A DNA stretch of 64,000 nt from Escherichia coli. GTDB taxonomy: Bacteria > Pseudomonadota > Gammaproteobacteria > Enterobacterales > Enterobacteriaceae. Below the pieces are notes generated by a model. The model searched no databases, was not told the origin of the DNA, and worked only from the letters and a program-made list of their open reading frames with translations. Below, piece by piece: positions 954 to 25,012 of this stretch (within the stretch, counting starts at the first letter, position 1; each line of letters begins with the position of its first letter). Where the stretch lies: NCBI RefSeq assembly GCF_024700885.2, contig NZ_CP117016.1. One strand, 5' to 3'. The position numbers were made by a program, and so were the translations under genes.

Positions 954-2380
954 CAGTTGCCCCCTTTCAGGGTTAACAGGTATTCCGAGGTGATCTCAGT
1001 CTCAAACGTCAGTCGCTCCAGCGGCGGTGGTGGCGTATATTTGTAGCTCAGCAACAGGTGCCCGGCGGCCAGCTCCGTCTCCGGATTGCGGGCCGGATCA
1101 AACCAGCAACGGAAGCCCAGTACCGCACCATCACCAGTCATTTTGCGACCGTAGGCGTTGACCGACTCCGTCAGTGCATCAATCAGCGCCTGAGTAATCG
1201 GCATGTCGATGTACTGCTGGCTGAAATAACGAATGGACTCGTTGATCACATCACCGGTGCGGCGAACGTTCTCAAAGTTACGCATATGGGTGACCGTTGG
1301 CCATGCTGCCGTCCGGTTACCCCACAGACGAAGGCCGCTGCCGTAACTGCTGAATACCGTGGTGATCCCCTGTTCGTTAAGCAGGTTTACCTCACTCTGC
1401 GGGTCATCAATCATCGCGGACAGCTGGCGCTCCACGCCGGTGATCCCCAGAATCTCCTGATTGGAGGATGACCACCAGTAGCCCTTGTCCAGATCGACTC
1501 TGGCACGCAGACCTGCTGCACGCTGGCTGAGCGGCTCCAGACGCTCTGTGTTTGTCACCGGGTCATATACCTTCACATGCGGATAGCACAGACGGACGCG
1601 GTCGGAGCTGGTATTGAAGTTGATGGTGCCTTCCGGGCCACGACCTGCCAGAGCCTGTGCAAAGGTGGTACCGACAGGCGCATCAATGTAGGTTACCGCG
1701 CCCAGCTTCTCTGCCATGGCGATAAGCTCAACTGCGACACTCTTCTGGGTGCAGAACACCGGCGCAATCAGAATTTTGGCGAAATAGCCGTACAGGTTGA
1801 AGCTGTCGTTAAGCAGCTTCATGCCGGTTCGGTTTCCGGCGCTGTTCACCCCGCCGATGATGTCCGCCGCAGTCACCTTCGACGGGTCCGCGTACTCATA
1901 GCTCACCTTCACGCTGCCACCGGCCTCAATAGCCTTGCCCAGGTTCGTGAGCACACCCGCCTGCGCATCAACACGGTAGTCCGTGTTCGCCGTGTGGGTG
2001 GTGCTGCCTTCACTGTTTTTCACCACCACATTAGCGACAACCGGATGCGCCAGTCTGGCCTGCCCTGTCGATTTGTCAAAGGTAACCACCTCATCCTCGA
2101 TCGCCGTTTTATGTTTCGCCGGGTCGAGGACGTTAATGACCAGAACGGTGCCTGCACCATGGTCATAAATCGCATCCAGCGCCTGCGGAATGGTAAAGCC
2201 GGTGAACTGGCTGCCAAATGCCGCTGCGTCTTTCTCAGACAGGCACTGTACCAGCGTATTGACATCCCCCATCGGGGCGGTACCAATCAGGCCAATAACG
2301 GCAGATTTCACCGTTTTAACCGGGCGGGCTCCGTTTTCCACCTCAATGGTTTCGGGACCATGCAGATAGTTAGCTGCCAT
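953..2380 (-). CDS. phage tail sheath protein (Mu L-like)
   Basis: 475 aa, sheath-like size and position upstream of tube gene; family resemblance from memory. Confidence 0.75.
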   Translation of the reverse strand: MAANYLHGPETIEVENGARPVKTVKSAVIGLIGTAPMGDVNTLVQCLSEKDAAAFGSQFTGFTIPQALDAIYDHGAGTVLVINVLDPAKHKTAIEDEVVTFDKSTGQARLAHPVVANVVVKNSEGSTTHTANTDYRVDAQAGVLTNLGKAIEAGGSVKVSYEYADPSKVTAADIIGGVNSAGNRTGMKLLNDSFNLYGYFAKILIAPVFCTQKSVAVELIAMAEKLGAVTYIDAPVGTTFAQALAGRGPEGTINFNTSSDRVRLCYPHVKVYDPVTNTERLEPLSQRAAGLRARVDLDKGYWWSSSNQEILGITGVERQLSAMIDDPQSEVNLLNEQGITTVFSSYGSGLRLWGNRTAAWPTVTHMRNFENVRRTGDVINESIRYFSQQYIDMPITQALIDALTESVNAYGRKMTGDGAVLGFRCWFDPARNPETELAAGHLLLSYKYTPPPPLERLTFETEITSEYLLTLKGGN

Positions 2381-3880: not shown

Positions 3881-4834
3881 TTATTTACTGATACCGGTAA
3901 TGAGATACCCGGCATCGCCACCAACCACGGCGACTTTGTAGATATCGGTATAACGGCAGTACTTCACCTTGCCACCGGCTCCGTCGTATTTGTCGGCAAC
4001 AGGCATCCCCTTACGACGCAGGGTGTAGCCGAAGGACGGCTCGTTCTCGTCCGCGCTGTCCGCCCCCGGCTGCGGTTTGCCGACATAGTGCAGCATCAGA
4101 TTGTCTCCCCAGATATCCGCCGGCACGCTGTTCTTATCCATTGCCGCTTTCATGGACGGCAGGGAGACTGGGGCACCGATGACGATCTCTTCGATCTGAA
4201 AGAGGTCCTGCAGGATTTCTGTGGTGATGCGCTTGCGTTCGTTGGCTCCGATGGCGGCCTGAATCGCCGGGTGGAACTTCAGCAGCGCCATCACGCCGGC
4301 CCCCATGGTCATCAGGTTAGGACGCAGCCCCGTGGCCGTACGGACCGCTTCCATACCGGCTTCAATCACCCCGATGGGGTCCCCCTTACCACCGACCCAG
4401 CGATCACTGGCTGTCAGTTTTTTGACGTGCCCGGTACGGTAGACCTTTTCATCCTGAGCCAGACGGGCAGCGATAAGTTCACGGCGCAGGTTCACGCCAT
4501 TCGTGGCGCGACGGATGGCCTTGCTCTCTTCGTTAAACATGGACTCCGCCTGCTCGCGATAGTCCACCGGCGCAGCCAGATCGTGTTCACCCAGCACCAG
4601 GTCCAGCGTGCCTGTTTTTTCACGAACCAGAACATTGCTGTCCGCCCCGACGGCACGCTCGGTGTCATATTCCACAAAGGCGGTTTTCCCGAAGGTCGGT
4701 ACACGCACGCCTTCCTTGTCCGTCAGCACGACGGGGAAAATACGTTCGCCGATGAATGCGGCATTTTTATAGCCACGGGCGATACTGGTCAGTACCGGAT
4801 CAACGACACGTTTACCTTTTAAGTAATCAGACAT
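3881..4834 (-). CDS. phage major head subunit (Mu T-like)
   Basis: 317 aa directly downstream of the protease/scaffold gene; Mu-type order. Confidence 0.7.
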   Translation of the reverse strand: MSDYLKGKRVVDPVLTSIARGYKNAAFIGERIFPVVLTDKEGVRVPTFGKTAFVEYDTERAVGADSNVLVREKTGTLDLVLGEHDLAAPVDYREQAESMFNEESKAIRRATNGVNLRRELIAARLAQDEKVYRTGHVKKLTASDRWVGGKGDPIGVIEAGMEAVRTATGLRPNLMTMGAGVMALLKFHPAIQAAIGANERKRITTEILQDLFQIEEIVIGAPVSLPSMKAAMDKNSVPADIWGDNLMLHYVGKPQPGADSADENEPSFGYTLRRKGMPVADKYDGAGGKVKYCRYTDIYKVAVVGGDAGYLITGISK

Positions 4835-4848
4835 GCTCTCTCCTTAAA

Positions 4849-5964
4849 TTACAGGCAGCGTGCGACAGCAGCCTCATAGCTGATGCCTTCTTTTTTGGAC
4901 AGGGCCACTGCTTTCTGATGCAGGGCCAGACGCTCAGGATCGGCTTCCGCAAACTCTGCCACATCCACCTTCACCGTGTCGCCGACACGCTCTTTTGTGG
5001 CCTGTTCGGCGAAATTCATCACCGGCTCCCCGTCGGAGAGCAATGAACGAAAGGCGGTGGCCAGCGGTGTGCGGCTTTCCCCCTCAGCAAACTCCACCGG
5101 CTTGTCGCCACCGGCGACGGCATCCAGCAGGGCAACCACCACGGAGGAGGCGCGGGGAGCCAGACGGCCCTCTGCGACCAGTTTTTCTGCAAAGGCCACA
5201 TTGTCCTTATGCAGTTGCTCCTGTCTGACCTGTGCATCACGCGCATCGCGATCAGCAGCCTGCTGCTTCAGGCGGCGGTTCTCCTCCTGAAGGGCTTCAA
5301 TCTCTTCTTTTGTCATCGATGATTCCTCGTTACTTGCGGAAGACGGCACCTGGCCTGTCTCACTGAATTGCGCACCTGCTGCATCCTGCGACGGTGTGTC
5401 GCGGTACGCCTCTTCGCGCAGATTGTTGAGCTGCCATTCCGGCAGGACTTTTTCTGCTTCGTCCAGACTGAAGCGGGCGATCAGAAAATCGCGCAGCTTT
5501 CCCCACAGGGAGGCATTCGTGATGGCCTGCCAGTCGGCGAACTCCACCACACCTTCTTCCTGCTCACTGAAGGACACCTGTTTCAGCCCCTTGACGGAAG
5601 GTGGCTGTGCCCCGAGAAAGCCCACATGGCGCAGGTAGAGCACGCCGGGCTTCGGATTGGACGGTGAATCCGGGAGGTAGAAAGAGGCGGACACTTTTTT
5701 GAATCGTCCGTCGGTGACCATCTCAGCAAACTGCGGGTCCAGCTGGGCAGGCTCTGCCATCAGATCGACGCCGCTGAGCGACAGGGCTTTCACCCAGCCC
5801 CACGCCGGGTCTTCCGTTCTGGGATGACCAATCACGAGTGGTGCTTCATGGACGGACGGGTCATAGGCTTTCACGCAGGCGGCAAGATCGTCTGGCGTGA
5901 ACGGCAGTTTTTTGCCGTGCATATCGGTATGAGTACCGGCTTTAAAAATGTGAATGGCTGACAT
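4849..5964 (-). CDS. phage head maturation protease/scaffold (Mu I-like)
   Basis: 371 aa with acidic, Glu/Ala-rich coiled C-terminal half typical of I/Z scaffold; position upstream of major head gene. Confidence 0.7.
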   Translation of the reverse strand: MSAIHIFKAGTHTDMHGKKLPFTPDDLAACVKAYDPSVHEAPLVIGHPRTEDPAWGWVKALSLSGVDLMAEPAQLDPQFAEMVTDGRFKKVSASFYLPDSPSNPKPGVLYLRHVGFLGAQPPSVKGLKQVSFSEQEEGVVEFADWQAITNASLWGKLRDFLIARFSLDEAEKVLPEWQLNNLREEAYRDTPSQDAAGAQFSETGQVPSSASNEESSMTKEEIEALQEENRRLKQQAADRDARDAQVRQEQLHKDNVAFAEKLVAEGRLAPRASSVVVALLDAVAGGDKPVEFAEGESRTPLATAFRSLLSDGEPVMNFAEQATKERVGDTVKVDVAEFAEADPERLALHQKAVALSKKEGISYEAAVARCL

Positions 5965-6178
5965 TTTGCTGTCCCGCGTTATGTTGTCGGAGACAGTTTG
6001 TGAGAAATGCAGGCCCGGCGATTTTAATCTGCTTTAGAAAACATCAGGGGAGAAGGACAGGGAAAGCAATACGGTGAACCGGAGGCGGTTATAAAACAGA
6101 GGCTGTAAAGCCTTTATAAAGGTAATACAGCCCCTCATTCGCTGGCAATGATAAATCACCCGCCTGAAGAGAGAAAAC

Positions 6179-6637
6179 TCAGCGACGGGCCGCTGATTCA
6201 AGATGGCGGACAATGGTATCGAGGATGGGGATTACCACTTCAGGCTGTAGTTCTCCATCCCCCGTCACCGGCAGGAACGGGCGGGCCGGAAGTTCAACAG
6301 ACTCATTACGCCCCGTTTTACCCCCGAACTGGTGAATGGCACCGTAAACAACGTTGGTCCCCACAACAGCCTGCCGGTCGTCATGGTCGGTTGATACTGA
6401 CCCCATCAGACGCCCGGTATCCTGCAGTGTCTGCCCGTCACGCTCTTCCGCTGCCAGCGAGGGCATCCACCCCGGACGCCCCTCATCAAGAAAGTTAAAC
6501 TGTGTTTCCGCCAGCAGGGTTCCGGCAATTTTGCGCATCGCGGGCTCCAGGTCTGTGGCAGCAAGATCCAGCGCACGGAGGCTCCGGCGCAGGGATTTAT
6601 CGTTAATGGTGATACTGACCAGGTTATCGGAAGCCAT
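6179..6637 (-). CDS. phage virion morphogenesis protein (Mu G-like)
   Basis: 152 aa immediately downstream of the F-like gene. Confidence 0.6.
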   Translation of the reverse strand: MASDNLVSITINDKSLRRSLRALDLAATDLEPAMRKIAGTLLAETQFNFLDEGRPGWMPSLAAEERDGQTLQDTGRLMGSVSTDHDDRQAVVGTNVVYGAIHQFGGKTGRNESVELPARPFLPVTGDGELQPEVVIPILDTIVRHLESAARR

Positions 6638-6639
6638 TG

Positions 6640-7461
6640 TTATCCTCTCAGTTCCTGTTGTGCCAGTGGCTGAAGCGTACCCTGATAGCGGGCCAGGTCG
6701 GGACGGTATGCTGCCCCCGGTGCATAAGACCAGCCGACGTCGGTGATCACCTTCGTGGTGCCGGTATTAAAGGTGGCCACGTTCCGCATTTCGCCGGTTT
6801 TCTCTGAGACCAGTTTCAGTTCCTGGCCCATGGCAGAGCCGGAGCTGATAACCTTCAGGCCACGGGCACGTACATCCGCCGCACTCAGGGCAATCACACT
6901 ACAGCGGCAGCGCCAGCCGTTCGGCGGGTAAAATGCCTGCCAGAACGGGTCATCCCAGCGCAGCACCAGACCATGCAGCGCCAGATGGCTCCTGCGGGTA
7001 TGGCTGTCGTTGATGCCGGTATACATCCAGTACGGCCTGTCGTCGACGTTTTCCATCTGTTCCGCCCAACGACCGGCGCTGTAGAGTACGGACATATTGG
7101 TGCGAAAGATGGTATCGAGCCGCCACGGACTGCCCTGCTGAATGGTGACTGGCTCACCCGTTACCGGGTCAGTCGTGTCACGTGGTCCCCACCATCCCTT
7201 ACGCTTCAGCACCGGCTCCAGCTCCTGCCGGAACCAGCGATCGGTTTTTCCTTCATCGACAGCCTGCTGCAGTGCCCCGCGAATATCTTCCAGGATATCC
7301 AGGCGGGTCACTTTAGCAACGGTAAAGGCGCGGGCATGGGCCTCCTGCCACATTTCTTCCCAGTCCCAGGTAATCTGATACCCTTTGGACTTCAGGTAGT
7401 TGATTGCCCGCTTCGGGGGAAGCGTCATGCAGTACGCCAGTTCAGCCGTTGTCACGCTCAT
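6640..7461 (-). CDS. phage head morphogenesis protein (Mu F-like minor head protein)
   Basis: 273 aa; contains NGWRCRC-type motif typical of Mu F / SPP1 gp7 family; follows portal gene. Confidence 0.7.
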   Translation of the reverse strand: MSVTTAELAYCMTLPPKRAINYLKSKGYQITWDWEEMWQEAHARAFTVAKVTRLDILEDIRGALQQAVDEGKTDRWFRQELEPVLKRKGWWGPRDTTDPVTGEPVTIQQGSPWRLDTIFRTNMSVLYSAGRWAEQMENVDDRPYWMYTGINDSHTRRSHLALHGLVLRWDDPFWQAFYPPNGWRCRCSVIALSAADVRARGLKVISSGSAMGQELKLVSEKTGEMRNVATFNTGTTKVITDVGWSYAPGAAYRPDLARYQGTLQPLAQQELRG

Positions 7462-8938
7462 GCAGACGCCCCCGGATATTTGTCACAAAGAGAATGCGGG
7501 CCAGCCGCTCCTGCAGATCGTCCGTGTTCATCTGAGGGTAGAGCTCCGCCAGTTCGCCCAGCAGCTCAGACGGGTTAACCCCATTTTCGACCCGCCTGAA
7601 CAGAGGTGCCAGGACGGGTTCCAGCGTGCCATTTAACGCGCCTCCGTTCATCAGAATGTCCAGCGCGTCGTCAAGCTGCTGCTGAGCCTGAATATCAGCA
7701 TCAATCGCCTCGGCAAATGACAGCGGCAGCATGTTATTCTGTCGTTCCGACGGTGGTGTCTCGTCAATATCGCCGTCCTGCAGTTGGTACTCACGCTTGA
7801 AGTACTGCGGGGTCAGACGCAGACCCGCCCGGGTGAGTTTTTCGTCGCGGGTGGCACGGGTGTCATCAATGGCCTCCTGTTCCCACATGGCCCAGACCGG
7901 ACACGGCACATCGCCGAAGTTCAGGGTGACCACCGTTCTGATGACCTGATTCACTGCCGCCTGAATGATGTCCGCATCCGCATCGCGGATATCAGCCGTT
8001 ACCTCCAGCCCGGCCTGTGCAGAGGCCTTGTTACTGTTCGCTTCCGTGGTCTGATTCTGACCGAGTAATGCAATGGAGATCTCACTGCGTGACAGTGTGA
8101 TCAGCTCGCGGAATACCTCGCTGCTGTCCGCCTTACCATCCGCGGCTTTGAGTTCGATGCTGCTGTCATCGGGGATGGCGGCCACCGCGTCCTCCACCAT
8201 CTGCTCCATGGAGTCCAGCAGTTTTTCAATCTCTGCATCATTTGCACCCCTCGGGTGCTTACCGATCACCCACGGGGAGCCAAACTTTTCGGCAAAGCGG
8301 AGCCAGAATTTCATCCCGCCTTTCTTGAAGGCGACCGGCCAGAAGCACATGGACAGGTCCGGGAAACCGTAAGGATTGTCATACGAGGCATCCTGTGCCG
8401 GCACCACGAATTTTGACGGTGACAGCAGCTCACCCTCCACACCCGCATCACGCGCCCGGAAGCGCAGGCAGTTGTCCGTATCAAACTGAAACCACTCAGG
8501 CGGTTTGCCGACAATATCCGTCACCGCCCACGACCTGACCGAACGGCCCCACATGATTTCACAGGGCTGATACCCGTAGAGCACGGCATCGCTCATTTCA
8601 CCGATGATGCGGGACAGATCCAGATCGTCGAGCATGTCGCGGATGAAACGGAAGACCCGGGCAGAGGCGTGACCACGCTCCAGTCCACGCTCCAGCGATT
8701 TAAGCGCTGCTTTACGTCTGCGGATACAGCCCCCGACCAGCGGGTCGGTGCGCAGTTCGCGGTAGATACGGATATCCCGTCCCTGAGCCTTGAGAATGGG
8801 ATCAGGATTGGGCAGATACATGCCCAGTCCGTAAAAGTCGATCGCGCGGCTGCGGGAGGCAATCTGCGCGGTCAGTGATTTCTGAGGCTCAGAAAAAGCA
8901 ACAAATTCATCGGGTGAAACCCAGATACCCCTCGCCAT
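7442..8938 (-). CDS. phage portal protein (Mu gp29-like)
   Basis: 498 aa between terminase large subunit and F-like gene. Confidence 0.75.
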   Translation of the reverse strand: MARGIWVSPDEFVAFSEPQKSLTAQIASRSRAIDFYGLGMYLPNPDPILKAQGRDIRIYRELRTDPLVGGCIRRRKAALKSLERGLERGHASARVFRFIRDMLDDLDLSRIIGEMSDAVLYGYQPCEIMWGRSVRSWAVTDIVGKPPEWFQFDTDNCLRFRARDAGVEGELLSPSKFVVPAQDASYDNPYGFPDLSMCFWPVAFKKGGMKFWLRFAEKFGSPWVIGKHPRGANDAEIEKLLDSMEQMVEDAVAAIPDDSSIELKAADGKADSSEVFRELITLSRSEISIALLGQNQTTEANSNKASAQAGLEVTADIRDADADIIQAAVNQVIRTVVTLNFGDVPCPVWAMWEQEAIDDTRATRDEKLTRAGLRLTPQYFKREYQLQDGDIDETPPSERQNNMLPLSFAEAIDADIQAQQQLDDALDILMNGGALNGTLEPVLAPLFRRVENGVNPSELLGELAELYPQMNTDDLQERLARILFVTNIRGRLHERDNG

Positions 8939-13085: not shown

Positions 13086-13436
13086 TTAAAGCCCCATCGC
13101 AACAGCCAGGCAGACCGCTGCAACAATCAGTGCACGGCGGATTAACGCAGCAGAAAACACCAGGTGAAGGCCGGTCTGTACCGGGAAACGCCCTTCAGCC
13201 ATCAGCCTGTCGTCATGTTTCAGGTACTGACCGGGACGGGCTTTGGGGAAGAGCGAACGGTCAAGCCAGTAACCCAGCACTGCTGCCAGCGTGATGAGTG
13301 CCAGCTTGTAGATCACAACAGGCAGCTGCTGTGGTGAGACCAGAGCGATGGTGCCCAGCAACAGCACTGAGGTCAGCAGCCAGCCGCTGAGGCGAGGTTT
13401 TTTAACAAGGGGAATGAATTTTTTCAGTTTTTTCAT
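13086..13436 (-). CDS. holin-like membrane protein (3 predicted TM); start set at ATG 13436
   Basis: AAGGAGA 5 nt upstream of ATG 13436; three hydrophobic segments; first gene of the lysis cassette. Confidence 0.5.
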   Translation of the reverse strand: MKKLKKFIPLVKKPRLSGWLLTSVLLLGTIALVSPQQLPVVIYKLALITLAAVLGYWLDRSLFPKARPGQYLKHDDRLMAEGRFPVQTGLHLVFSAALIRRALIVAAVCLAVAMGL

Positions 13437-13566
13437 GTGTGTCTCCTTATCTGGTGGAGACAGCATCACAAATACAGGGCGCGAAGGATTTTAAAGCGCG
13501 TTAAGAGAGCCGGGGATACGGGATGTGCAGGATAAACGATGAATTATTCACAGAGGAGAATACGAT
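13437..13566. promoter_or_regulatory. divergent intergenic region: putative late (lysis) promoter and promoter of the kinase-like gene
   Basis: 130-bp non-coding gap between divergently oriented genes that both have strong RBS. Confidence 0.4.
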
Positions 13567-14295
13567 ATGACGCAGACACTGAATCCGGTCATCACTGTCA
13601 CCGTGTCCGGTCCTGTGGGCAGCGGTAAAAGTTACGTACTGGCGCGAATAGAGGAAGTGGTGAAACAGGAATTCGGAAACAGCGTCATTGTCGACGCCGC
13701 AGACGTGGACGGTGAGCGCCGTATGAGTGGGGATGATCTGAGCACATGGCAGAAACCACGGGCTGGCACAGTGATCAGGCTGGAGGAATACACGGGACAG
13801 GGCCTGTTGTCATACGGCGAGGAGCGTATCTGTCGGACGAATGAGCTGCTGGATGTTATATGCCCCACGGGCCGGCAACCCTGGATACTGCCCGATGCAC
13901 TGCATGCCACCATTGCGGCACTGATGACAGTTTACGATCAGGAGCTGCTCATGAAGGAGTTACGTAAACTCACTGGTCAGTCAACAGAATGTTGTTCGTC
14001 CCCGAAGTACGGCAAACAGGAACACATCCCGATTAACCAGCCTCCCCGGTTCTTCGACGAATACCTTCTGACACCGGAAAATAAAGCTGAGCATGAAGAG
14101 ATCAAAGCGGCGTTGTTCCGGGAAATCAGGAAGATTGCTGAAATGCAACTGGAGGGCGGGCTGGACAGAGTGATGGCGAGAGGAGAATGGGCATCGCTGT
14201 TTGAAAGAGTTTCCCCGGAATTACTTCCCCTCGCACTGGCTATCGGGATTATGCAGACAGCGGATAAACCTCACTTACGTTCATTAAACACGTAA
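13567..14295 (+). CDS. P-loop kinase-like protein (Walker A GPVGSGKS followed by hhhDAAD, as in small-molecule/nucleotide kinases)
   Basis: GAGGAGA RBS 7 nt upstream; motif VTVSGPVGSGKSYV ... SVIVDAADVD; 242 aa. Confidence 0.6.
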   Translation: MTQTLNPVITVTVSGPVGSGKSYVLARIEEVVKQEFGNSVIVDAADVDGERRMSGDDLSTWQKPRAGTVIRLEEYTGQGLLSYGEERICRTNELLDVICPTGRQPWILPDALHATIAALMTVYDQELLMKELRKLTGQSTECCSSPKYGKQEHIPINQPPRFFDEYLLTPENKAEHEEIKAALFREIRKIAEMQLEGGLDRVMARGEWASLFERVSPELLPLALAIGIMQTADKPHLRSLNT

Positions 14296-14675
14296 CGCAT
14301 AATCCGGGATACGCATTCAGCGATGACTGCATTTTCACCGGTTTTTACTGCATCCAGAAGTGACTCTTTAAATGGTACGGGCCGGGGCTGCAGAAAGGTC
14401 GGCATGGCATTGAGCAGACAGAGCGTTTTTTCCGTGAGGACGACATCAGCCGCTCCCACAGCCAGCAACTGAGAGTAACGAATATAGCTGTTATCCCGAA
14501 GCCATATCAGCGTATCAATAAAACACCGGCACTTTTTCTGGTCGTGATCAACCTGGTCCGGGATATCGAAAAAACCAGAATAAATCAAAACCTGAGGTGC
14601 CGGATGCGTGTTCAGTAATCGGCAGAATATTTTGCCGGTGAGTACATAAAAATCATCATTTAAGGAGTGCATCAT
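14271..14675 (-). CDS. hypothetical 134-aa protein, convergent with and overlapping the 3' end of the kinase-like gene by 25 bp
   Basis: Only long ORF covering 14296-14673; E. coli-like codon usage by eye; no recognisable motif. Confidence 0.45.
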   Translation of the reverse strand: MMHSLNDDFYVLTGKIFCRLLNTHPAPQVLIYSGFFDIPDQVDHDQKKCRCFIDTLIWLRDNSYIRYSQLLAVGAADVVLTEKTLCLLNAMPTFLQPRPVPFKESLLDAVKTGENAVIAECVSRIMRYVFNERK

Positions 14676-14889
14676 GAATCCCCGATTAACGTTAACAGAA
14701 CATCAGCGCCGTGCTGAAGCAGTGAACAATGTTCTGGAAGATATTATCCGGTTATACCGCGGAGAACTGAGTGTCTGTCGTGCCGCTTTTCATTTTCAGG
14801 GAATACAAAAGCAGTTTGATACTTCTGTTTTTGCAGAAGGTATTACTTATGCCCTGGACCGGATAAGGTCAGAAAATCGCCCCGGATAA
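14674..14889 (+). CDS. hypothetical 71-aa protein
   Basis: AAGGAG 6 nt upstream of ATG; start codon overlaps the start codon of the 134-aa ORF on the opposite strand. Confidence 0.5.
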   Translation: MNPRLTLTEHQRRAEAVNNVLEDIIRLYRGELSVCRAAFHFQGIQKQFDTSVFAEGITYALDRIRSENRPG

Positions 14890-15079
14890 TCCCTAAACCA
14901 CATTAACAGAAATCCCGCCATCCCTGCCGCATCATGAAAGAACGACCAGCCCGGCACCCGAAAGCCGGGCTGGTCATCGCCCCACAGGAATGCGCTGTGA
15001 GCCGACCAAGGTTCAGTCAGTCTCGCGAGACCTGACCAGACTGCCATATTTTTTAATAATTGTAAAAGGCTTGCAGATT

Positions 15080-15844
15080 ATGAAAATGCAGACATTACCC
15101 ATCGTGCCGTGGATTGGTGGCAAACGCCGCCTTGCAAAACACATTCTGCCGCTGTTTCCGGCGCATGAATGTTATGTGGAGCCGTTTTGTGGGGCAGCAG
15201 CGCTCTATTTTCTTAAGACACCCGGCAAGATCGAAGTCATCAATGATATCAACGGTGAACTGGTGAATCTGTACCGGGTGGTAAAGCATCACCTGGAAGA
15301 ATTTGTCCGCCAGTTCAAATGGGCGCTGGTCAGCCGTCAGATCTACAAATGGCTGCAGATCACCCCGGAAGAAACACTGACGGATATCCAGCGTGCGGCA
15401 CGGTTCTACTACCTTCAGAAGCAGGCGTTTGGCGGCAAGGTGGCAGAGCACAGCTTCGGTACCTCCACCACATCCCCGCCACGCTTCAACCTGCTACGTA
15501 TTGAAGAAGAACTGTCAGCGGCACACCTGCGGCTTTCCAGAACAGTCATAGAACACATGGACTGGCAACAGTGCATTGAGCGTTATGATCGTCCGCACAC
15601 GCTGTTCTACTGCGACCCACCGTACCTGGGTACGGAAGGCTATGGTGTGGATTTTCCTGAAGGGAACTACTCGCGGCTGGCAGAGCTGGCCCGGTGCATC
15701 AGAGGAAAAATGATAATTTCGGTGAACGACATCCCGCAGATGCGCGAGGTGTTCACTGGACTGAACATACAGACAGTGAATATCAACTACAGTCTGGCGG
15801 GTAAACCCACGCCGCGCCGTGAACTGCTAATCTGCAACTTCTGA
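15080..15844 (+). CDS. DNA N6-adenine methyltransferase, Dam family (orphan)
   Basis: DPPY catalytic motif (FYCDPPYLG) and N-terminal PWIGGKRRL motif typical of Dam-family enzymes; no adjacent restriction endonuclease. Confidence 0.8.
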   Translation: MKMQTLPIVPWIGGKRRLAKHILPLFPAHECYVEPFCGAAALYFLKTPGKIEVINDINGELVNLYRVVKHHLEEFVRQFKWALVSRQIYKWLQITPEETLTDIQRAARFYYLQKQAFGGKVAEHSFGTSTTSPPRFNLLRIEEELSAAHLRLSRTVIEHMDWQQCIERYDRPHTLFYCDPPYLGTEGYGVDFPEGNYSRLAELARCIRGKMIISVNDIPQMREVFTGLNIQTVNINYSLAGKPTPRRELLICNF

Positions 15845-15874
15845 AACAAAACCGGAAAGCACAATGCTTTCCGG
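15844..15874 (-). terminator. putative rho-independent terminator downstream of the repressor gene
   Basis: 9-bp perfect stem CCGGAAAGC/GCTTTCCGG, followed on the minus strand by a T-rich tract. Confidence 0.4.
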
Positions 15875-15960
15875 TAAACCAAACAACTTCCACTATGTCA
15901 CTGGCGATGTTTTCTGAAAGCATCCAGATCAACCACCTGTCCTTTGTGTCCGGGTCAGTA

Positions 15961-16317
15961 TCAGCCTGCGATTTTTCCTGGTTTTGGCTGAGTATAGAAT
16001 CGCCCAATCTCAAGAAATGAGCGTTGTTGGTCTGGTGTCATGTCGTCAAAAGTATCTATTAGTTTTTGTTTTTCTGGGGAAATTTGATTCTGGTTTCTAG
16101 TCATACCATCTGTGCTCATTCCAGTGAGCAACCAATTTACATCAACATTAAACTCTTGATGCATCTTTAACAGAAACTCCCCTCCAGGCATCGCCTTTCC
16201 ATTTTCAATCTGACTGATACCACCATTAGAAATACCTAAACGAGCTGCAAATTCTCTCTGGTTCAACCCTGCTTTCTTCCTCACAGAAATAACGCGCTCT
16301 CCTATATCTTTGCTCAT
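15961..16317 (-). CDS. phage repressor, XRE-family HTH (Mu c analogue)
   Basis: HTH LNQREFAARLGISNGGISQIENGK; divergent from ner-like gene. Confidence 0.7.
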   Translation of the reverse strand: MSKDIGERVISVRKKAGLNQREFAARLGISNGGISQIENGKAMPGGEFLLKMHQEFNVDVNWLLTGMSTDGMTRNQNQISPEKQKLIDTFDDMTPDQQRSFLEIGRFYTQPKPGKIAG

Positions 16318-24201: not shown

Positions 24202-24651
24202 ATGCAGAAAAAACGCCTGATACAGCTTATCCATATTGCCCGTAATGAACTGGGTATGGATGAAGACACCTACCGCCAGATGTTACAGGGGCTGACCGGT
24301 AAAGCCTCAACCAAAGGAATGGATACCACACAACTAAACTGCGTGCTGGAATCCATGAAAAAGAAAGGCTTTCGCGTTAAACCAGCCAGAAAAGCCAGCT
24401 CCGGTTTACCGCTGGATAACCATCCGCAGTCCAGGAAAATTCGTGCGCTATGGCTTGAAATGGCTGCTGCCGGCATTGTTCGTGACCGTTCAGAAAATGC
24501 ATTAGCGAGGTGGATCAAGCGGGAAACGGGCATCAGCGCCCTGCGCTGGCTCAGTACTGAACAGGCAAGCAGTGTTATTGAGAAACTGAAGAAGTGGCAG
24601 CGCAGAGCTGCGGGAGTCAAACATGAGCGACCTGAATCAGTTTCGAAGTAA
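24202..24651 (+). CDS. GemA-like (Mu gp16-like) regulatory protein
   Basis: 149 aa immediately upstream of mor, as in Mu. Confidence 0.5.
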   Translation: MQKKRLIQLIHIARNELGMDEDTYRQMLQGLTGKASTKGMDTTQLNCVLESMKKKGFRVKPARKASSGLPLDNHPQSRKIRALWLEMAAAGIVRDRSENALARWIKRETGISALRWLSTEQASSVIEKLKKWQRRAAGVKHERPESVSK

Positions 24652-25012
24652 GGGGCCGGAACTCCTGGTGGAACTGGCACAGCATACCTCTGAGACCGTT
24701 CGCGAGATTATTGATATTGAGCCCGAAGTTGCCGACCAGATTGGTCAGGCCGTCGCGAACCGAATGATGCAGGTCTGGGGCGGGCAAAACGTTTATTTCC
24801 CGATGGGCATGGTATGGAAGGTCAGTCAGCGCGACCGGGAAATCTTCAGGGAGTTTAACGGACGCAACCACCACGAACTGGCCCGCAAATTTGGTGTTTC
24901 GCTTCAGTGGGTCTACAGCGTGGTTAAGCGGGTAAGAAAAGAAGAACTGGATCGGATGCAGGGCAAGCTATTTGCTGATGAACCCGATGCAGATACGGAG
25001 AAAAAAGAGTAA
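24623..25012 (+). CDS. mor: Mor/C-family transcriptional activator
   Basis: 129 aa with C-terminal HTH HHELARKFGVSLQWVYSVVKRV. Confidence 0.7.
   Translation: MSDLNQFRSKGPELLVELAQHTSETVREIIDIEPEVADQIGQAVANRMMQVWGGQNVYFPMGMVWKVSQRDREIFREFNGRNHHELARKFGVSLQWVYSVVKRVRKEELDRMQGKLFADEPDADTEKKE

Follow-up and report, generated by a model that had tools for sequence, protein, structure and literature searches.

The 2.4 kb between the holin and immunity repressor genes of a BcepMu-like Escherichia coli prophage hold four real genes in a variable accessory region, and these genes form three separate units, not one new defence system. We analysed them in a stretch of 64,000 nucleotides of one E. coli contig (the window). 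Our preferred reading, to which we give a probability of about 0.5, is that the interval is a composite accessory region of independently inherited units; it extends to proposals on the timing of expression, the targets of the products and a toggle between two of the genes. The region then splits into three units that can be tested separately: a known but silent methylase, a mosaic Walker-A protein typical of the lineage, and a winged-helix pair that moves on its own. A defence or anti-defence function of the genes is possible.

The four open reading frames of the initial annotation, made from the letters of the sequence, are all present, and the same four coding sequences stand in the RefSeq annotation of identical prophages. 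The flanking holin-like and repressor genes that it had named are likewise supported by PHROG matches (Table 1).

Table 1. Features of the holin-to-repressor interval and its flanks (positions in the window)
Feature	Position	Strand	Evidence or remark
Holin, first gene of the leftward lysis/late operon, left flank	13086..13469 (RefSeq start 13436)	-	phrog_1528 holin, E 3e-54; RefSeq 'putative holin'
Conserved divergent control region, holin / 242-aa gene	13442..13566	.	Alignment of 9 loci from E. coli and Serratia
242-aa protein	13567..14295	+	phrog_3787, full-length match, family of unknown function
75-aa N-terminal Walker-A mini-domain of the 242-aa protein	13567-13794	+	Followed by mosaic helical modules
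Winged-helix protein, 133/134 aa, convergent with the 242-aa gene	14271..14672 (ORF to 14675)	-	phrog_2266, full-length match, family of unknown function
71-aa protein, divergent from the winged-helix gene	14674..14889	+	phrog_4490, full-length match, family of unknown function
12-bp GC-rich hairpin, T-rich tail on the minus strand (probable terminator)	14946..14975	-	Read from the sequence
Orphan D12-class N6-adenine DNA methyltransferase, 254 aa	15080..15844	+	TIGR00571, PADLOC MTase_II, DPPY
Strong intrinsic terminator, methylase / repressor gene gap	15851..15875	-	11-bp stem, then TTTGTTT
HTH (cI/Xre-type) immunity repressor, right flank	15961..16317	-	phrog_8 / phrog_4 transcriptional repressor matches

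The prophage and its control regions

The prophage that had been described as Mu-like can be placed more exactly as BcepMu-like by its identity with two known elements: it shares 99.9% identity with PhiKM, an Escherichia phage assigned to Bcepmuvirus, and it is the same prophage as Phi2 of EC958, with identical proteins. Its gene order agrees with that of BcepMu (NC_005882). The transposase, Mor and DUF3486/gp27 are annotated, and the prophage has the DDE transposase, Mor/GemA and Mu gp27/gp29-type head genes of the genus, as well as early and late operons diverging from a central immunity region. Of 5,426 complete E. coli genomes, 634 contain the stretch; EcPF7 is window-identical (100.0% identity over the queried stretch). 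The complete four-gene block is present in 492 of the 634 and, where unbroken, is near-identical across hundreds of genomes.

The intergenic region between the holin and the 242-aa gene contains an inverted repeat (TCTCC-N9-GGAGA, 13442-13460) and a near-palindrome (TTTAAAGCGCGTTAAG, 13490-13505), and long invariant blocks run through the nine-locus alignment from E. coli to Serratia. We infer that it is a late-activator or promoter site shared by the two directions of transcription. At homologous loci, PF13272 Holin_2-3 occupies the holin position and HTH_3 / Phage_CI_repr the repressor position. The hairpin at 14946..14975 is probably a terminator that would protect the winged-helix pair from leftward transcription; an equivalent hairpin and T-tract lie at the same place in Serratia L011 and in L069, so that three BcepMu-type loci have it. 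A search for SOS control found no LexA box in the module, and no structured RNA was matched in Rfam between 12500 and 17000 at E <= 1.

Independent occurrence of the parts

At least six different gene contents fill the holin-to-repressor interval among relatives, and such hypervariability makes the label of cargo, given to this interval from the start, a fair one. The Walker-A-domain gene is followed directly by Dam in L007 and L009 and occurs without Dam in L019, Dam stands alone in L020, and a DUF2441 gene occupies the slot in L021, KP12 and L079. L069 has the pair without Dam, and L075 has kept the 71-aa gene and Dam with the winged-helix gene deleted. Natural alleles of the 242-aa gene are truncated or internally deleted in L073 (182 aa) and L074 (212 aa), and these alleles, together with the deletion in L075, show that these genes are dispensable for prophage carriage. 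In Serratia prophages the order is similar (242-aa C-terminal module, winged-helix gene, small gene, Dam). The 242-aa C-terminal module and the winged-helix gene stand together in four loci (the window, L011, L069 and L071). A strict tie between them was rejected on L078, in which a similar-looking C-terminus is followed by an unrelated 157-aa gene.

The genes had also been said to have no place in the phage plan, which does not hold for two of them: the Walker-A-domain gene and the methylase recur at fixed positions in enterobacterial BcepMu-like prophages, the former adjoining the holin and carrying mosaic C-termini.

These distributions bear directly on the proposal that a P-loop kinase, two uncharacterised proteins and a methylase work together as a single nucleotide-directed system of defence, anti-defence or DNA modification, which draws on their adjacency in a variable region, on the full block in 492 of the 634 carriers and on the similar gene order in Serratia prophages. 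We consider it very improbable, since every part has been found without the others in relatives and the winged-helix pair is also found in P2-like phages, with neither a methylase nor a Walker-A protein. The three uncharacterised proteins also have no PADLOC match, kinase membership of the 242-aa protein fails, and the methylase transcript is low in lysogens, as described below. The single module of the initial annotation thus gives way to independently occurring parts.

A Walker-A mini-domain with mosaic helical modules

The 242-aa protein does contain the two motifs that had been noticed in it, GPVGSGKS (residues 15-22) and an hhhDAAD motif (VIVDAAD), and its GxxxxGK[ST] Walker A follows a beta-strand, as in the kinases. 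Its likeness to shikimate/gluconate/APS-type kinases was not upheld, because the match is confined to the Walker A strand-loop-helix, which fits many unrelated P-loop families equally well. The best Pfam matches of the whole protein are generic P-loop families at E >= 0.011, with no kinase-specific profile matching over the core; the isolated Walker-A domain reaches E of about 1e-3, and all matches span only about 30-45 residues. Profile matches in the PDB are scattered over ABC, PilT, UreG, EF-Tu and kinases, none of them reaching beyond the Walker A region, NCBIfam gave no match, and PADLOC-DB v2.0.0 gave only P-loop noise (E about 3e-3). The protein shows no conserved Walker B or acid after strand 2, and it has neither the full alpha/beta core of five strands nor the substrate-binding domain of a kinase.

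Conservation points the same way. Among 1.84 billion representatives, only residues 1-75 match beyond close relatives, and AF2 pLDDT exceeds 90 only at about residues 11-70. The conserved residues of the domain are G15, G18, G20, K21, S22 (N in some), E50, W61 and P64; G15, G20 and K21 are invariant in 17 diverse N-domain sequences (alignment A7) and near-invariant in a 34-sequence alignment (A3), while GKN replaces GK[ST] in three homologues. D43, the acidic residue of the hhhDAAD motif, is variable across the family. Conservation and confident folding are limited to about 75 residues. The protein is not kinase-like, and a kinase identity was rejected for want of a LID or substrate domain, a conserved Walker B and a fold match. 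A search for structural relatives outside its own family returned none. Between E. coli variants, pN/pS of the gene is 0.2-0.5.

The methylase is M.EcoMIV

Profile, motif and the absence of a nuclease neighbour all agree with the orphan Dam-type methylase proposed earlier. The protein scores 116.6 bits against TIGR00571 dam (cut-off 114.85), matches PADLOC MTase_II at E 6e-112 and phrog_56, and has 'CDPPY' in its translation as well as the PF02086/TIGR00571 signature; its longest ORF begins at 14990. Against the E. coli Dam equivalog it scores 67 vs 441 bits, far under threshold. On sequence, it is the enzyme already named M.EcoMIV of EC958 prophage Phi2, with accession WP_000783854.1 common to EcPF7 and EC958 Phi2. 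We call it an orphan because no nuclease gene adjoins it: among its neighbours we found neither a nuclease-like ORF nor a PADLOC REase match that would make up a restriction-modification system, and in relatives it stands alone or next to unrelated genes. A Mu-prophage origin of another methylase, M.EcoGIX, was rejected, as M.EcoGIX is plasmid-borne. For M.EcoMIV no recognition motif was assigned in EC958, and its transcript is low in the EC958 lysogen (PMC4659465), which for this gene goes against the expectation of cargo expressed in lysogens.

A divergent pair with abutting start codons

The start of the 134-aa gene is most likely the second ATG, at 14672, which is favoured by the alignment of homologues and by a GGGGA 6 nt upstream, and this choice would leave the divergent start codons of the pair one base apart (CAT-c-ATG). 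At the other end, the gene shares 25 bp with the 3' end of the 242-aa gene. The strong RBS that had been ascribed to the 71-aa gene is there, as AAGGAG 6 nt before the ATG. With the start codons abutting, the pair has no intergenic operator region, and each gene must contain the expression signals of its partner. Scans for sigma-70 promoters found none that was consistent for either gene.

The 134-aa protein has the helix / beta-hairpin-wing topology of a winged-helix fold, with structural matches to winged-helix domains. Its family is mostly acidic (pI 4.4-5.4; window member 6.8), which, together with the lack of an intergenic operator, would argue against DNA binding. The earlier failure to assign the 134- and 71-aa proteins to a family stands: like the 242-aa protein, they are without a family match in Pfam, NCBIfam and PADLOC. 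No enzymatic or effector domain was found in either, and PADLOC-DB v2.0.0 gave no significant match for the two proteins or their relatives. The pair also does not resemble a type II toxin-antitoxin system, the genes being divergent and without a toxin or antitoxin family match in Pfam, NCBIfam or PADLOC. The 'DUF2513' label that the 134-aa protein's Serratia homologue carries was not reproduced, the family having no Pfam match even at E <= 0.1. Literature searches under the protein accessions and PHROG ids found no papers.

Could the three uncharacterised ORFs be decaying or non-functional prophage remnants without a current role, the 71-aa ORF perhaps not even translated? The shortened 242-aa alleles of L073 and L074 and the winged-helix deletion of L075 would fit, as would the 134-aa gene left uncalled by the PhiKM depositors and the pN/pS of the 71-aa ORF, which spans 0.3-1.5 between E. 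coli variants, with upper values of 0.6-1.5, and points to weak constraint, although few substitutions lie behind these values. We nevertheless regard decay as improbable. The unbroken block is near-identical in hundreds of genomes, and pN/pS stays below 0.5 for the 242-aa gene and the 134-aa gene (0.07-0.3 for the latter). E. coli and Serratia winged-helix proteins are 53% identical, and the 71-aa protein is 31% identical (E 3e-11) to a 73-aa protein at the same position in the Serratia prophages, with lengths, RBS and start-codon geometry kept. The small ORF, moreover, is uninterrupted in over 25 P2-like loci that have diverged from one another.

The pair in P2-like phages

In these more than 25 P2-like loci, a winged-helix gene and a small divergent partner with a CATG start overlap adjoin cos in the gpA-gpQ hotspot, a site that houses many validated defence systems (PMC9122126; preprint 10.64898/2026.02.27.708500). 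The winged-helix proteins of BcepMu-type and P2-type cassettes are about 30% identical. Homology between the small partners was not supported (hhalign E 0.41), so that the pair is conserved in architecture but not demonstrably in both proteins. The flanking orientation is alike in both phage families: upstream genes share the direction of the small gene and read toward the winged-helix 3' end. Among P2-like phages the pair makes a stable edge element close to cos, beside which recognisable defence-type genes are swapped in: an AbiP2-like reverse transcriptase and a DUF262 protein, both by our own reading of the sequences, and a Fic protein annotated as such in its record.

The location suggests that the pair may be a new lysogen-expressed anti-phage system, acting by superinfection exclusion or abortive infection, with the other genes as unrelated neighbours. 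Its sites are a hotspot of validated defence systems and, in BcepMu-like prophages, a hypervariable interval; it has passed between phage families that are unrelated, and the winged-helix gene shares its strand with the repressor. We think this unlikely, however, as both proteins are without an enzymatic or effector domain and without a PADLOC match, the P2-like pair is a stable edge with defence-type genes swapped beside it, and some prophages have lost the winged-helix gene.

The same architecture could equally reflect a winged-helix regulator with a variable small effector, like acr loci with Aca, in which the regulator would control a fast-evolving counter-defence or host-modulating protein or the adjacent cargo. 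The fold is suggestive, the winged-helix protein is retained across cassette types whose small partners are not detectably homologous, the small gene outlives deletion of the winged-helix gene, variable cargo always adjoins the pair, and one depositor annotated a homologue as 'putative transcriptional regulator'. This reading is doubtful for other reasons: the mostly low pI (6.8 in the window) is unusual for a DNA-binding regulator, the abutting start codons leave no operator region between the genes, and the genes are divergent whereas acr-aca operons are co-transcribed.

A model for the composite region

In the composite reading that we prefer, the first part comprises the rightward genes that begin beside the late (holin) control region, namely the 242-aa gene and, farther on, M.EcoMIV. 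Both would be expressed in lytic growth and not in the lysogen. The methylase may modify phage DNA before packaging and thereby allow escape from restriction in the next host. The 242-aa protein would be a small phosphate-binding Walker-A domain with exchangeable helical modules, and could bind targets of the host or of competitors in modular fashion, as a factor of host take-over or counter-defence. The second part would be a self-contained cassette of two genes, the winged-helix gene and its small helical partner, placed between the 242-aa gene and the methylase. Its geometry suggests an antisense-coupled toggle, in which the winged-helix protein would be made while the flanking operon is silent, as in a lysogen, and lytic read-through would silence its gene and yield the small partner, which may antagonise the winged-helix protein.

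A more far-reaching version is offered tentatively. The cassette may be a new kind of phage accessory system across P2-like and BcepMu-like phages, either a lysogen-expressed exclusion or defence factor whose antidote is turned on by antisense read-through at the lytic switch, or a regulator paired with a counter-defence protein. The Walker-A mini-domain proteins, whose C-terminal modules are shuffled, might in their own right be a modular family for counter-defence or host take-over.

Significance and comparison with known systems

About 12% of complete E. coli genomes carry the EC958 Phi2 / PhiKM prophage, the pandemic ST131 clone among them, and its unannotated genes are therefore among the commonest 'hypothetical' phage genes of clinical E. 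coli. Within the region, the pair most deserves testing. It also borders the P2 defence hotspot in thousands of genomes of Salmonella, Klebsiella and E. coli, its abutting-start architecture is unusual, and it is a cheap candidate for defence and counter-defence screens and for the study of antisense-coupled gene pairs. Should such work lead nowhere, the region is ordinary prophage accessory DNA.

With P-loop kinases (shikimate, gluconate, APS, cytidylate), the 242-aa protein shares an N-terminal beta-strand, GxxGxGK[ST] and a helix, and its weak profile matches include cytidylate kinase and gluconokinase, but the likeness ends after about 40 residues and the remainder is mosaic helices. Among orphan phage Dam-type (D12 class) methyltransferases, the window enzyme is M.EcoMIV itself and differs in nothing from it.

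The pair recalls acr loci with Aca in combining a conserved HTH/winged-helix-type protein with a small, fast-diverging partner in phage accessory regions. It differs in that its genes are divergent and not co-transcribed, its winged-helix protein is acidic, and neither protein is similar to established Aca or Acr families. The face-to-face promoter switches of P2 and 186 (Pe-Pc with C/Cox, pR-pL with CI/Apl) offer another parallel, as divergent genes whose transcripts overlap at their 5' ends, as those of the pair presumably do, allow mutual interference. Here, though, the start codons abut without an operator-bearing intergenic region, and the proteins are unrelated to C/Cox or CI/Apl.

Finally, the interval as a whole resembles the hotspots of temperate phages, such as P2 old/tin between gpA and gpQ and moron or defence islands, in having conserved core flanks and swapped content, and the P2-type hotspot itself carries a winged-helix pair. 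It departs from them in that its three uncharacterised genes match no described defence family, that the Walker-A-domain gene and Dam recur at fixed positions in the BcepMu-like lineage, and that in P2-like phages the pair acts as a stable edge element and not as a swapped cassette.

The prophage and its methylase

The 3.4 kb around the four genes are 99.9% identical to Escherichia phage PhiKM (Bcepmuvirus) and were found in 634 of 5,426 complete E. coli genomes, many of them ST131; 492 of the 634 carry at least 80% of the stretch. The window prophage encodes proteins identical to their counterparts in strain EC958, where the prophage takes in the tail-fibre inversion sites published for Phi2, and together these data identify it as Phi2. 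Its layout is that of BcepMu and not of Mu, with a central immunity region, a leftward late operon and a rightward early operon. GemA-like and Mor-like genes mark its right end at ~25.1 kb. The flanking host genes are not those beside Phi2 in EC958 (ycaL-cmk-rpsA), which fits a transposable phage inserted at another chromosomal site.

All four reading frames of the initial annotation were recovered, and RefSeq records of identical prophages hold the same four CDS. The proposed flanks, a holin (phrog_1528) and an Xre/cI-type HTH repressor, were recognised, as were the GPVGSGKS and VIVDAAD motifs and the strong ribosome-binding site of the 71-aa gene (an AAGGAG box 6 nt upstream of the ATG). The supposed orphan Dam-type methylase passes the Dam-subfamily threshold, has a DPPY motif and lacks a nuclease partner. 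It is already known as M.EcoMIV (EC958_1101; Forde et al., 2015, PMC4659465), a D12-class orphan enzyme carried by Phi2, transcribed significantly below dam in mid-log LB cultures and with a methylation motif that could not be assigned (PMC4659465). This low transcript in lysogens speaks against the suggested lysogen expression, for the methylase at least.

Features of the window and of related loci (slot, second cargo slot behind the repressor; interval, holin-repressor interval)
Locus	Feature	Coordinates	Strand	Content
Window	Holin/242-aa intergenic region	13442-13566		130 bp
Window	Walker-A-domain gene	13567..14295	+	242 aa
Window	Winged-helix gene	14271..14675	-	134 aa; start probably second ATG, 14672
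Window	Small divergent gene	14674..14889	+	71 aa
Window	Methylase gene	15080..15844	+	M.EcoMIV
Window	GemA-like, Mor-like genes and right flank	24202-25012, ~25100 onward
L073	Walker-A-domain allele	1069-1617		182 aa; half the domain deleted internally
L074	Walker-A-domain allele	1005-1643		212 aa; premature stop
L007, L009	Interval			Walker-A-domain gene, then methylase directly; extra leftward genes behind repressor
L019	Interval			158-aa Walker-A-domain protein, two unrelated leftward genes; no methylase
L020	Interval			Only methylase, with 401-aa protein and nucleoid-associated protein
L021, KP12, L079	Interval			DUF2441 protein
L069	Interval			Winged-helix/small-gene pair; no methylase
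L075	Interval			As window, winged-helix gene cleanly deleted
L007	Slot	7738-8820		135 + 216 aa
L019	Slot	6082-7740		193 + 328 aa
L020	Slot	4445-6660		401 aa + nucleoid-associated protein
L021	Slot	4240-6843		DUF2441 + 203 + 328 aa

A hypervariable interval

The idea of cargo is borne out: between holin and repressor lies a hypervariable interval, its contents differing between relatives. The same differences speak against the rival of one four-gene system, contiguous as the genes are in the window, since they show that inheritance does not keep the four together. As an accessory hotspot of a prophage, the region is typical. Related prophages also carry 2-3 extra same-strand genes, probably lysogen-expressed, in a second slot after the repressor that is empty in the window; the L007 pair from this slot had no match in PADLOC.

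The Walker-A protein

Searched exhaustively with phmmer, 1.84 billion representatives yielded 60 proteins related to the 242-aa protein; those outside its close relatives align over residues 1-75 only. They share a strand, GxxGxGK[S/N], a helix and then E50, W61 and P64, followed by short helical modules in varying combinations. The supposed Walker B lacks conservation at its acidic residue, and Pfam and PDB profile searches matched many unrelated P-loop families through the Walker A segment only, so the proposed kinase assignment falls. We conclude that this is no kinase but a modular Walker-A-domain protein typical of the lineage. PhiKM alone carries the gene in a set of 50,697 sequenced phages, and remoter homologues of the N-domain come from phage contigs of 90-140 kb. 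Three large metagenomic phage-like contigs (L022, L024, L025; 48-141 kb) hold distant mini-domain homologues beside DUF7941 clusters, so the domain is not confined to Mu-like prophages.

Natural deletion and stop alleles, the former in a cluster of dozens of members, imply that the protein is dispensable for prophage maintenance. Such alleles count towards decaying DNA as a rival reading.

In BcepMu-like prophages the gene is always divergent from the holin, across a 130-bp conserved region with a near-palindrome. This region, near base-for-base conserved from E. coli to Serratia, contains TTTAAAGCGC(G/T)TTAA and, adjoining the holin start, the repeat TCTCC-N9-GGAGA; it may serve transcription in both directions as a common late-activator site. 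The Walker-A protein and the methylase would be lytic-phase functions of a rightward unit, the methylase shielding phage DNA from restriction and the Walker-A protein acting as a modular binder of targets from host or competitors.

The winged-helix pair

The 134-aa protein folds as a winged helix. With the probable start of its gene, the divergent start codons lie 1 base apart (CAT-c-ATG); the 3' ends of the 134-aa and 242-aa genes overlap by 25 bp. A profile search found 85 homologues across Enterobacterales, and most of the winged-helix family is acidic. In P2-like phages (Midge, FSL SP-004, ST147-VIM1phi7.1 and 42 IMG/VR contigs) the winged-helix homologue always accompanies a divergent 63-64-aa ORF, start codons overlapping in CATG. 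The geometry recurs in Serratia and other BcepMu-like prophages, where the small partner and the 71-aa protein share 31% identity. Homology between P2-type and BcepMu-type small partners was not detectable; a rival account makes the pair a regulator and a counter-defence protein that varies. In both families co-directional upstream genes are followed by the convergent winged-helix gene and then the small gene, and in three BcepMu-type loci a predicted hairpin and T-tract would shield the pair from leftward transcripts. Because the signals of each gene lie inside the other, the two would be coupled by antisense transcription, the winged-helix protein being made while flanking transcription is off and its partner by read-through during lytic growth.

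Comparison with known systems

The initial observation is confirmed and its interpretation partly supported. The 134-aa and 71-aa proteins indeed belong to no named family: they and the 242-aa family match only PHROGs of 'unknown function', with no hit in PADLOC, Pfam or NCBIfam, and a literature search found no mention of the three. A new defence or counter-defence function for the pair or for the modular Walker-A proteins is unlikely, at roughly one chance in four. The rival of a new defence system draws on P2-like phages, where the pair adjoins cos within the gpA-gpQ interval, a demonstrated defence hotspot (PMC9122126). Defence-type genes sit there between pair and gpA, namely an AbiP2-like reverse transcriptase and a DUF262 protein (our sequence reading) and a Fic protein (record annotation), and the pair stands alone in ~1/3 of loci. 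Several unannotated cassettes on the downstream side of the winged-helix gene in P2-like viral contigs L027-L068, lying between the pair and gpA (for example 363+206 aa, 379+161 aa, 145 aa), look like further uncharacterised hotspot cargo. The sole feature that a specialist might not expect is the abutting-start winged-helix cassette common to the two phage families.
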